The notes below the pieces were generated by a model that saw only the letters and a list, made by a program, of their open reading frames with translations, had not been told where the DNA came from and did not search any database. Positions 2,907-10,968 of a stretch of DNA of 10,968 nucleotides are shown in pieces. Source of the DNA: a virus (taxonomy: Duplodnaviria; Heunggongvirae; Uroviricota; Caudoviricetes). Positions within the stretch are counted from its first letter, which is position 1. Each line of letters starts with the position of its first letter. Position numbers and translations under genes: made by a program. The stretch is from IMG/VR virus record IMGVR_UViG_2724679172_000013; one strand, written 5' to 3'.

Positions 2907-3989
2907 ATGAAAAAATTAACAGTGGCAATTTCTGCTGTAGCTGCATCAGTACTGATGGCGATGTCTGCTCAGGCAGCTGAAATTTATAATAAAGACAGTA
3001 ACAAGCTGGATCTGTACGGGAAAGTTAATGCTAAGCACTACTTCTCCTCTAATGATGCAGATGATGGTGATACTACTTATGCCCGTCTTGGCTTCAAAGG
3101 TGAAACCCAAATCAACGATCAACTGACTGGTTTCGGTCAGTGGGAATATGAATTCAAAGGCAACCGCGCTGAATCTCAAGGTTCTTCCAAAGACAAAACC
3201 CGTCTTGCATTTGCAGGCCTGAAATTTGGTGATTACGGCTCAATCGATTACGGCCGTAACTACGGTGTAGCATACGACATCGGTGCGTGGACTGACGTCC
3301 TGCCAGAATTCGGTGGTGATACCTGGACCCAAACAGATGTGTTCATGACTGGTCGCACTACTGGTGTTGCAACTTATCGTAACAACGACTTCTTTGGTCT
3401 GGTCGATGGCCTGAACTTTGCTGCTCAGTATCAGGGTAAAAATGACCGCACTGACGTAACTGAAGCCAATGGTGATGGTTTCGGTTTCTCCACTACTTAT
3501 GAGTATGAAGGATTCGGCGTGGGTGCAACCTATGCTAAATCAGATCGCACTGACGGTCAGGTCGCCTATGGTAAGAGCAAATTCAATGCCTCCGGCAAAA
3601 ATGCGGAAGTATGGGCTGCAGGCCTGAAATATGATGCGAACAATATCTATCTGGCTACCACATATTCTGAAACTCAGAATATGACCGTTTTTGGTAATAA
3701 CCATATTGCAAACAAAGCACAAAACTTTGAAGCAGTAGCACAATATCAGTTTGACTTCGGTCTGCGCCCATCTGTTGCTTACCTTCAGTCAAAAGGTAAA
3801 GACCTTGGTGTTCATGGTGACCGAGACTTAGTCAAGTATGTCGATGTCGGTGCTACTTACTACTTTAATAAAAACATGTCCACTTTTGTTGATTACAAAA
3901 TCAACTTAATTGACGATAGTAAGTTTACCAAAACAGCTGGTATTGATACTGATGACATCGTTGCTGTAGGTCTGGTTTACCAGTTCTAA
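2907..3989 (+). CDS. nmpC: outer-membrane general porin (OmpC/OmpF/PhoE family; prophage NmpC/OmpD-like), intact
   Basis: 360 aa. Signal peptide [23 protein letters not shown] then AEIYNKD; porin hallmarks including C-terminal ...[17 protein letters not shown] 7 nt upstream. Location between Q and the lysis genes on the opposite strand matches prophage nmpC. Confidence 0.9.
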
Positions 3990-4178: not shown

Positions 4179-4562
4179 TTAATTAGAGTTATTAACAACG
4201 ATATCCATCTCTAACCGGATATCTAATGCCATTAACATCCCTTCAATTATGCCCTCAGCCTTTTGTAACCTTTTCCCGATATAACCATCAGAGCAGCAAT
4301 GCTTACCTGCCAGTGACATGAATGTCATACCGACTACATAATAATCTACTAATAAATCGTGCAAATCGCTGTTGTTCTTTTTCAGACGGGCCATGCACCC
4401 GCAAATGATCATCGCGTCATCGTCACAACATTGCGGGCGAGATTTTACTTTTGAAGGAATTAATCCCTTAAAACCGGCGGCAATGGACGACCAGGTCACA
4501 TCTTCATGATTATTAGCCGCCCACGCTCCCCAACGCTCAAGAACCATCTGAATATCACGCAT
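4179..4562 (-). CDS. Q: late-gene antiterminator Q (phage 21/82-type, QuuD-like)
   Basis: ORF 4179..4577; preferred start [14 protein letters not shown] (127 aa). Cys-rich motifs ([20 protein letters not shown]). Position immediately downstream of rusA/ylcG and before the lysis cassette. Confidence 0.85.
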
Positions 4563-8412: not shown

Positions 8413-9915
8413 ATGACTCAAACTCCTCTATTACTTGCAATCATATTTTTATTGGTTGTTCTTGTTCTTTATATAGCTGCAATCAAACGCATCAAAAAAA
8501 TACAATTAGAATTAAGTGATAGCAATCAAAAAAATGAAGAATACAAATCTCGCTTTGCAGATTATTTTAATGTAGAAGAAGAATGTAAGAAGCTTATTGA
8601 GAAAACAGAGCAAGAATGCTCCATAATAAAAGAAGAATCCCTAAAAGTAAAAGAAAATGCCAATAATGAACTAACAAACACCATTGAAAAAATGGATGGT
8701 ATCAATAAACAAATCCAAGAGCTAAGAAGAACTTATAAAGAGAAGAAAGAAATATATGATAAACTAGTAAGGCAAATTTCTATTTATTCAGAAGATGTTG
8801 AGCTAGCCGAACTAGGATTTTACGAACCTCATTTTAATTTTGAAGATTCAGAGCAATTTAAAAACAAAATAAAATCCATCAGGGATGAACAGAAATTAAT
8901 GCTGCGGGATAAAACCCACTCTGGCGCAGTATATTGTACAACCCAATGGACTGTTGAAGGCTCTCGAGCAGAGGGTAAAAAAATGACAGACAGAAATATC
9001 AGGCTAACTACTAGAGCATTTAATAATGAATGTGATGCTGCAATTAGCAATTGCACGTGGAAAAACATCACTAAAATGGAAGAACGCATCACAAAGGCAT
9101 TTGAGGCCATAAATAAACTAAACGAGCAAAATCACATATATATAAACACTAAATACCTCAATAAAAAACTTGAGGAATTGTGGCTTACCCATGAATATCG
9201 TGAGCAAAAACAGAAAGAAAAAGAAGAACAGGCAGAAATAAGGGCACAAATGAGAGAGGAGGAGCGTGCACAACGAGAAATAGAAAAGGCCATGCAAGAC
9301 GCAGAGGCAGAAGAGCGCCGTTATAAAAAAGCAATTGAAGCTGCAAGAAAGGAAATGGAAAAAGTTACTGGTGACATGAAGCAGCGCCTCGAAAATCGCA
9401 TTGCCGAACTAGAACAGAGTTTGTCGCAGGCTGAATCAAAGCATCAAAGAGCATTATCCATGGCACAACAAACCAAACAAGGTCATGTTTATATTATTTC
9501 GAACATAGGTTCTTTTGGGGAGAATGTTTATAAAATAGGCATGACACGACGTCTTGATCCGCAAGACCGTGTAAATGAGCTCGGTGATGCATCTGTTCCT
9601 TTTATTTTTGATGTACATGCCATGATTTATTCGGAGGACGCTCCATCATTAGAAAAAAAACTACATGATGTCTTCGATAAAAAGAGAGTCAATCTTGTAA
9701 ATCGTAGAAAAGAGTTTTTCTATGTTACTCTGGATGAGATCAAAGAAGCTGTTAAAAAACACTCTGATTCAGAAATTGAATTTATTGAGACAGCAGTCGC
9801 AAAAGACTTTAATGAGTCATTGGCTATTCGTAATCATGAAAATAAAAAAAGTGACAACAGCAACTCATCAATTATACCTGAGCGAAAAACCCCAGAGTTT
9901 GCAGATGCAATTTAA
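8413..9915 (+). CDS. membrane-anchored coiled-coil protein with C-terminal GIY-YIG-like (T5orf172-type) putative nuclease domain; candidate anti-phage defence / abortive-infection protein
   Basis: 500-aa ORF, opposite strand to flanking phage genes, visibly AT-rich. N-terminal TM helix (LLLAIIFLLVVLVLYIAAI), two long K/E-rich coiled-coil-like segments, and C-terminal GHVYIISNIGSFGENVYKIGMTRRLDPQDRVNELG. AAGGA RBS upstream. Confidence 0.85.
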   Translation: MTQTPLLLAIIFLLVVLVLYIAAIKRIKKIQLELSDSNQKNEEYKSRFADYFNVEEECKKLIEKTEQECSIIKEESLKVKENANNELTNTIEKMDGINKQIQELRRTYKEKKEIYDKLVRQISIYSEDVELAELGFYEPHFNFEDSEQFKNKIKSIRDEQKLMLRDKTHSGAVYCTTQWTVEGSRAEGKKMTDRNIRLTTRAFNNECDAAISNCTWKNITKMEERITKAFEAINKLNEQNHIYINTKYLNKKLEELWLTHEYREQKQKEKEEQAEIRAQMREEERAQREIEKAMQDAEAEERRYKKAIEAARKEMEKVTGDMKQRLENRIAELEQSLSQAESKHQRALSMAQQTKQGHVYIISNIGSFGENVYKIGMTRRLDPQDRVNELGDASVPFIFDVHAMIYSEDAPSLEKKLHDVFDKKRVNLVNRRKEFFYVTLDEIKEAVKKHSDSEIEFIETAVAKDFNESLAIRNHENKKSDNSNSSIIPERKTPEFADAI

Positions 9916-10163
9916 TTAATTTGTAGTAGCAATAAAGCAGGCATCGTTGAGAATATTTTGTCAGCGATGCTTACTTCTCTAACAAAAACGGTGATTACCA
10001 ACGAACTAACGGACTTCAGGTAATCATAAGACAAATGGAACGACTCTCCGGTGATTAGATCCCTGCAATAACAGTAATTTTCTACTAACTGAAAAATCTT
10101 TAACTGCCGCTCCTATTTCTAAGCTGACTGCTAGATTACATGGTGTGTTACCGATGAAAACCG

Positions 10164-10466
10164 TCACAGCAAGTTTAAGTTCATATCTCCATACACTGCC
10201 AACACTCGTTTCATCGCGGCACTCTGGCGACACTCCTTGAAAATCAGATTCGTGCTCACCTTTCCTTCCCGTTCTTCCCTGGTAGCGAACCGGTAATACA
10301 CCGTTCGCCAGACCTTACCATCAACGACCAAGATTCCTGCCCGTGCCATTTTAGCCGCAGCCTGATTTATACTGGTTACTGTTGCGCCTGTTACCGCAGC
10401 AACGTCCTGCGCACAGAAGCTCTTATGCGTCCCCAGGTAATGAATAATTGCCTCTTTGCCCGTCAT
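10164..10466 (-). CDS. ren: Ren-like protein
   Basis: MTGKEAIIHYLGTHKSFCAQDVAAVTGATVTSINQAAAKMARAGILVV... recognised as lambda Ren-like. ATG overlaps the P stop (ATGA), as in lambda. Confidence 0.85.
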   Translation of the reverse strand: MTGKEAIIHYLGTHKSFCAQDVAAVTGATVTSINQAAAKMARAGILVVDGKVWRTVYYRFATREEREGKVSTNLIFKECRQSAAMKRVLAVYGDMNLNLL

Positions 10467-10968
10467 ACAGTTGCTCCTTTCAGTCCGAACTTCGCTTTGA
10501 TTTCTGCGATCTTCGCCAGAGCCTGTGCACGATTTAGAGGTCTACCGCCCATGACAGGAAGTTGTTTTACTGGTTCAGGTATCGCCTCACCACGGTTAAT
10601 TCGCGCGGTCATACAAGTCAGTTCATCGGCAGCCTTGCGCCGTAATTCCGCATCAGTAAGCGCATTGGCCCGCATGTTCTGATACAGGTTGGTAACCAGC
10701 CAGTAGTGCGCGTTTGATTTCCACGGATAAGACTCTGCATCCGGATACAGGCCACGCTTCCGGCAATAGTTTGATTTCCACGGATAAGACTCTGCATCCG
10801 GATACAGGCCACGCTTCCGGCAATACTCGTAAACCATATCAACCAGCTCGCTGGTGTTTGGTAGTCCGGCAATAACGGATGCTTCTTCCCGGCACCAGGC
10901 TACAAACTGTCCGGGGGATGGCAGGAATGGTCGATTCTGCCGACGGGCTACGCGCATTCCTGCGTTAA
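10463..10968 (-). CDS. P: replication protein P (lambda P-like), 3' portion; ORF continues beyond the window edge
   Basis: ...RQNRPFLPSPGQFVAWCREEASVIAGLPN...MGGRPLNRAQALAKIAEIKAKFGLKGATV matches the lambda P C-terminal region from memory. Frame stays open upstream of the first in-window ATG to the window end. Contains a 19-aa in-frame tandem duplication. Confidence 0.85.
   Translation of the reverse strand, partial: NAGMRVARRQNRPFLPSPGQFVAWCREEASVIAGLPNTSELVDMVYEYCRKRGLYPDAESYPWKSNYCRKRGLYPDAESYPWKSNAHYWLVTNLYQNMRANALTDAELRRKAADELTCMTARINRGEAIPEPVKQLPVMGGRPLNRAQALAKIAEIKAKFGLKGATV
10712..10825. repeat. perfect tandem duplication, 2 x 57 bp, in frame within P
   Basis: 10712..10768 and 10769..10825 are identical by direct reading (gtttgatttccacggataagactctgcatccggatacaggccacgcttccggcaata). 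Encodes YCRKRGLYPDAESYPWKSN twice. Confidence 0.9.

Follow-up and report, generated by a model that had tools for sequence, protein, structure and literature searches.

The window, that is the whole stretch of DNA analysed (10,968 nt), corresponds to the Q-nin-ren-P portion of a lambdoid prophage of E. coli, and its replication gene P carries a perfect tandem duplication of 57 bp that adds 19 residues in frame to domain III of the protein. The best explanation, in which we place middling confidence, is that this is a real, very recent and strain-private duplication, neutral for its carrier, which probably perturbs docking of P on the DnaB helicase without unfolding P.

The gene containing the repeat is a lambda-type replication gene P. 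Its frame matched the Pfam family PF06992 (Phage_lambda_P) with 150.5 bits (cut-off 26; E=4.7e-44), in two stretches parted by the repeat, and the lambda P chain of PDB entries 8V9T ('helicase loader') and 9OA1 was matched at E=1.2e-155. The alignment to these chains paired query residues 1-151 with chain residues 1-151 and query residues 152-252 with chain residues 133-233, with three substitutions shown in residues 86-151 and three in the 101 residues past the junction. The first 85 codons of P lie beyond the window end. At an identical single-copy locus (L001), P is annotated as 'replication protein P' (WP_000788915.1), and the gene order there, Phage_rep_O - P - ren, recurred in 10 further contigs; O itself falls outside the window. 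The first-pass annotation had identified the gene as a lambda-type P, and the family match, the near-identity to 8V9T/9OA1 and the O-P-ren synteny all support it. Since ren adjoins P and overlaps its stop codon (Table 1), the P reading frame and the operon layout are intact. In the relative NZ_CP071073.1, the neighbouring genes extend from head and terminase to cI, bet and gam, so that the prophage of the relatives looks complete.

Table 1. Coordinates of gene P, its two repeat copies and ren in the window.
Feature	Position	Strand	Description and basis
Replication gene P, 3′ two-thirds (lambda residues 86-233, 19 extra residues and stop)	10463..10968	minus	Translation; PF06992; PDB 8V9T; annotation of single-copy locus
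Copy 1 of 57-bp unit	10769..10825	minus	N-terminal copy of P residues 133-151 (YCRKRGLYPDAESYPWKSN); TRF, repeat search, translation, coordinate arithmetic
Copy 2 of 57-bp unit	10712..10768	minus	C-terminal copy of P residues 133-151; TRF, repeat search, translation, coordinate arithmetic
ren	10164..10466	minus	Directly downstream of P, overlaps P stop; translation; 'protein ren' WP_000145913.1 in L001

The repeat was detected by several means. Tandem Repeats Finder (TRF) reported 10712-10825 as a perfect array of period 57 (2.0 copies, 100% matches, 0 indels, score 228), and a separate repeat search of the window also returned two 57-nt copies at 100% identity. When the minus strand was translated from 10966 as far as the stop codon at 10463, a single open frame resulted, in which YCRKRGLYPDAESYPWKSN occurs twice, back to back. 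These results confirmed the perfect in-frame 57-bp tandem duplication that the first-pass annotation had reported at 10712-10825. Because P is encoded on the minus strand, the copy at the higher coordinates is the N-terminal one (Table 1). As 57 bases make up 19 codons, the frame, the normal stop and the ATGA overlap with ren are all kept. An exact tandem repeat of 57 bases cannot have arisen by chance. The unit is flanked by GCGC/GTTT and AATA/CTCG, and the two copies meet at AATA/GTTT; since the flanking bases are unlike their counterparts at the ends of the unit, the boundaries of the repeat are unambiguous and microhomology is absent altogether. Inside the unit, the repeat search found only a weak 16-nt quasi-palindrome, and no promoter-like or terminator-like sites were found on either strand of 10000-10968. 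Plus-strand open reading frames across the repeat (10714-10875, 53 aa, TTG start, and others) were treated as mechanical by-products of the strand antisense to P.

The unit encodes residues 133-151 of the 233 in lambda P, which agrees with the central placement proposed at first pass. In the 2.66 Å structure of DnaB with lambda P, P is made up of domains I (1-29), II (~30-119), III (~120-192) and IV, the C-terminal lasso (193-233), and domain III of each P touches two consecutive DnaB C-terminal domains at site #3 (PMC12661323). P residues 145-162 contact DnaB 424-432 on one subunit, and P residues 131-141 together with 169-174 contact DnaB 391-398 and 447-456/468 on the next; DnaB E426, mutated in grpD55 (E426K), sits at the same site (PMC12661323). 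The duplicated residues 133-151 thus include parts of both the 131-141 and the 145-162 patch. They take in the final seven residues of helix 1 (123-139), all of loop 140-150 and the residue that opens helix 2 (151-167). R137, the site of a classical pi mutation, falls inside the unit: piA7/P-pi39991 is R137Q, which was isolated on a dnaB grpD55 host, changes the interplay between P and DnaB and partially suppresses P lethality (PMC3640518). Across 67 aligned homologues, 14 of the 19 residues in the unit were invariant (Y133, R137, Y140, D142, A143, E144, P147 and W148) or conserved at ≥90% (the nearly invariant C134, R135, G138, P141, S145 and Y146). Judged by this alignment, the duplicated unit is the most conserved stretch of P, and the pi/grpD genetics agree that the segment is a functional hotspot.

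With one copy of the unit removed, the window showed 0 mismatches to NZ_CP071073.1 over 10,911 bp, and at least 18 complete E. coli chromosomes matched at 100% across this 10,911-bp single-copy span. The duplication is therefore either very recent or artefactual, the same pair of options that the first-pass annotation had set out. Comparison with the P alleles of related prophages, which it had recommended, gave a uniform answer, since the 100%-identical relatives are all single-copy. It had also considered that the duplication might be widespread and fixed in functional phages; this was looked for, and the junction occurred nowhere else in the collections searched. A junction 50-mer, centred so that both halves were shorter than the megablast word size and single-copy genomes could not seed a match, was absent from 5,426 complete E. 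coli genomes, 50,697 phage records and 72,556 plasmids. An exact junction 37-mer and a codon-degenerate 32-mer (PWKSN/YCRKRG) had no match in GTDB species representatives, IMG/VR and JGI metagenomes; as a positive control, the codon-degenerate pattern does match the window.

Protein searches were made with the inferred 252-aa P and with the window fragment. The 252-aa sequence had no exact entry among ~15 billion proteins, the query having borrowed its N-terminal 85 residues from an identical relative, so that a source whose P begins differently would escape the search; the 233-aa single-copy allele was present on ~1,000 contigs in the same collection. The homologue search with the window fragment yielded no duplicated homologue, its best match being 89% identical, the value expected of a single-copy P. 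Furthermore, the exact ren protein had the 233-aa P alongside in 10 of the 10 places shown (38 contigs read). The allele is private to the source of the window, and its two copies are without any divergence. As judged from these sequences, it would be either private and very young, or an artefact.

Choosing between a mutation and an artefact is a matter of estimate: we lean slightly towards a real duplication, and regard an artefact of assembly, finishing or polishing as a serious but lesser possibility. The source genome would then be truly single-copy, and the 57 extra bases would derive from an untrimmed contig overlap or a local mis-reassembly of a gene with several diverged copies in each genome. 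Such an origin would account for a junction found in no other record of any collection searched, and in no independent assembly, within a window otherwise equal base for base to many single-copy genomes. The ends of the unit also fit it. Tandem duplications of the slippage type and of about this size usually show several bases of microhomology, 5-8 bp having been reported for those of 55-92 bp (PMC8639346), and a microhomology-mediated duplication is ruled out here, as none of the three boundaries described above has shared bases; microhomology was tested and found absent, so the P duplication does not belong to that class. This absence counts against a real slippage origin and is what a mechanical join is expected to leave. 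In addition, 57 is an odd, k-mer-like length, and the in-frame state carries little weight, having a 1-in-3 chance of arising anyway. Finally, P is multi-copy in such genomes, where assemblers struggle: P-like sequence was found in 3,564 of the 5,426 complete E. coli genomes (4,909 places, up to six per genome), and strain 118UI, which matches the window at 99.9%, gave two places in a P-only search.

Other observations point away from an artefact, none of them decisively. Short-read assemblers tend to collapse tandem repeats, not to generate them. An untrimmed de Bruijn overlap, moreover, should double the terminal k bases of an exact repeat held in common with a paralogue. The SNP positions of six diverse P alleles (L002-L007) were compared with the unit ends, and none of the six combined a difference at 10711 or 10769 with an identical unit. 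One of them, L002, comes from a strain that holds the window at 100% and is that strain's other P copy; it differs at 10712, the opening base of the unit, as well as at two sites within the unit, and these differences make it unfit for the overlap model. Nor were paralogue-specific bases of the six alleles present in either copy. Both copies have the resident allele at 10712, 10736 and 10754, the sites at which four of the six paralogues depart from it; of the remaining two, one differs only at 10715 and the other, L006, has an identical unit. An origin as a paralogue chimera is unlikely for this reason, as both copies carry the resident allele, with a paralogue of identical unit such as L006 still a possible partner. 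From sequence comparison, the six-allele result would lower the artefact reading but does not remove it.

Allele L002 (NZ_JBVDMR010000004.1, 180143-181444) belongs to a second O-P-ren module of strain LP-26-E1-261, located on a 216.7-kb circular record named 'plasmid unnamed1'. Its P is 95.6% identical, and the LP-26-E1-261 chromosome holds the single-copy window at 100%. The 216.7-kb record is possibly a phage-plasmid, or else a large plasmid with a prophage in it.

We infer that the duplication is real, and turn to its consequences for the protein. The window fragment was modelled by AF2 with 67 homologues, a prediction guided by single-copy homologues and blind to stability and binding, and the mean pLDDT was moderate (69.6). 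Helices 123-139, 151-167, 171-191 and 212-226 were kept in the duplicated fragment, the prediction being steered by those single-copy homologues. The first 7 residues of copy 1 finished helix 123-139, and the loop portion of copy 2 (YPDAESYPWKSN) ran natively into helix 151-167. pLDDT fell below 50 only in 16 residues across the copy 1/copy 2 junction, whereas the single-copy control had values of 85-93 over residues 133-151. The model superposed on the domain III crystal structure 8V9S with a TM of 0.90 and an rmsd of 3.7 Å (at a mean pLDDT of 69.6). A tandem repeat is equivalent to a 19-residue insertion at any point of the repeated stretch, so that the chain can choose the least harmful loop-out. 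Modelling of P with and without the duplication, which had been suggested at first pass, thus returned a kept AF2 fold with ~16-19 residues looped out.

We propose the following sequence of effects. In a lysogen P is repressed, so that the duplication would be selectively invisible there; it would have been neither lost nor diverged yet, and might last for a short time. In the protein, the tandem arrangement would let each flank retain its native neighbour: copy 1 would finish helix 1, helix 2 would follow on from the loop of copy 2, and ~16-19 surplus residues would be left out as a flexible loop. This loop would emerge between the domain III patches, 131-141 and 145-162, with which P grips a pair of adjacent DnaB C-terminal domains at site #3. 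Docking of domain III on DnaB would be weakened or altered, and the C-terminal lasso, the primary DnaB contact, would be untouched. The phenotype expected would be that of a hypomorphic, pi-like loader and not of an unfolded null: initiation at ori-lambda would be less efficient and P less toxic. From the model, a folded P is probably what results, with domain III docking weakened or distorted and DnaB binding perturbed without unfolding.

Given a real duplication, the principal alternative is a complete null; an insertion at a genetically sensitive interface could quite possibly abolish function altogether. Overall, we consider it rather unlikely that domain III or the DnaB interface is broken outright, so that DnaB would not be loaded and the prophage would be newly replication-defective, at a first step to a cryptic prophage. 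The unit, as the most conserved part of P and one spanning both DnaB-contact patches of domain III, is where such damage could be expected; the single substitution R137Q within it already changes P-DnaB behaviour (PMC3640518), and the collapse of pLDDT across the junction relative to the single-copy control points the same way. However, the reading frame is kept and no native residue is lost, the C-terminal lasso is intact, the tandem repeat permits a loop-out that preserves context, and the predicted fold was kept (TM 0.90 to 8V9S). In addition, P of deposited Klebsiella phages accepts 10-11 extra residues in the same loop.

Two further readings give the extra residues a positive role. In one, which we hold to be improbable, P would work with two YCRKRG...ESYPW DnaB-contact motifs, and an altered grip on DnaB, attenuated and pi-like or broader in helicase specificity, would lower prophage toxicity or change host range. 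In the other, the least probable of all, the duplication would have been selected because it attenuates P toxicity, caused by DnaB sequestration through leaky prophage expression, or changes helicase specificity, to the benefit of lysogen or phage; P is indeed toxic to the host through DnaB sequestration, and P alleles including R137Q suppress this toxicity (PMC3640518, PMC4926192), but one case that has neither spread, nor recurred independently, nor diverged is not a signal of selection, and a repressed prophage gene is little exposed to it. An adaptive role through reduced P toxicity has plausibility, and nothing beyond it, as support. A young, neutral duplication with probably weakened docking remains the preferred reading.

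Several other features of the prophage and its relatives were recorded. The ren product (100 aa) is annotated as 'protein ren' in RefSeq and occurs in 5,730 blocks of the contig collection; it had no Pfam match at E≤0.001. The O-type initiator beside the identical ren and the 233-aa P (L008-L016) was 309, 334 or 339 aa long between genomes, which is consistent with variation in O length or with a mosaic O. Between ren and the nin genes, on the opposite strand, 8413-9915 (plus) encodes a 500-aa protein with Pfam DUF4041 (SNIPE in newer annotation) and T5orf172/MUG113 nuclease-like domains, named 'SNIPE associated domain-containing protein' in RefSeq, which looks like a prophage-borne anti-phage defence moron. 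An imperfect tandem repeat (21 nt x 2.8, 71% matches) lies within this gene at 8612-8667. An OmpC-family porin of 360 aa (2907-3989, plus; Porin_1, E=1.9e-151) is encoded between the Q antiterminator (quuD, 4179-4562, minus) and the lysis cassette, and is a cargo gene of the lysogenic-conversion type. In two otherwise identical prophages (L008 and L017, 1983-2999), an IS5 is present between ren and the SNIPE gene, at ~9916-10163 of the window. Three chromosomal matches (H31, H32 and H46) span 12,110 bp versus 10,911 and list an IS5 transposase; their extra length is consistent with the same IS5 insertion as in L008 and L017, as an insertion polymorphism.

If real, the duplication would provide a natural insertion allele at the contact of domain III with DnaB, an interface defined in the 2025 cryo-EM work and indicated by pi and groP genetics. 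It could serve as a probe of the importance of this interface relative to the C-terminal lasso, and would be a snapshot of the first step in which the replication module of an intact prophage may be lost or tuned. If artefactual, it flags an error in the source assembly. Either way, knowledge of lambda replication is unchanged.

The closest known system is lambda P itself (PF06992; PDB 6BBM, 8V9S, 8V9T, 9OA1 and 9OA2). Near-identity of sequence extends to either side of the repeat, the O-P-ren order is the same, the four-domain layout matches in the portion visible in the window, and the predicted domain III superposes on 8V9S. The difference lies in the second identical copy of 133-151 within domain III, giving an inferred 252 aa compared with 233; no duplicated P was found among the solved structures or catalogued proteins searched. 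Like microhomology-mediated tandem duplications, the event is a perfect head-to-tail copy of some tens of bases, a form expected to be unstable and revertible (PMC8639346), and a perfect 57-bp repeat should readily revert to a single copy. The unit-end microhomology that defines that class is missing in P.

A second comparison is provided by the longer P proteins (242-248 aa) of Klebsiella, Salmonella and Leclercia lambdoid phages, which have an insertion of 10-11 residues in the same loop between helix 1 and helix 2 of domain III, directly after W148 of the invariant ESYPW motif. Deposited Klebsiella phages, Mulock and 2b LV-2017 among them, encode a P of this kind at 98-99.6% identity, and ST16-OXA48phi5.2 is a further example of a phage with a longer P. 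The P duplication is equivalent in sequence to inserting KSNYCRKRGLYPDAESYPW directly after W148, as in these proteins, and a natural insertion at this residue provides independent support for tolerance of the loop. Their insertion differs in being of unrelated sequence (PEHNVTPVTL and similar) instead of a repeat of the conserved DnaB-contact motif, and in being fixed in large clusters, where it is presumably co-adapted.

Finally, the duplication resembles the lambda pi mutations (piA7/P-pi39991, R137Q) in affecting the same small segment of P, with action on the P-DnaB interaction. These mutations are single substitutions selected on groP/grpD dnaB hosts, whereas the duplication is a 19-residue insertion. 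They set the precedent for a viable P with a weakened grip on DnaB. The duplication is an event of an ordinary kind in a gene already studied in depth, with nothing to suggest a new mechanism; its one point of interest is that it falls on the conserved DnaB-docking element.
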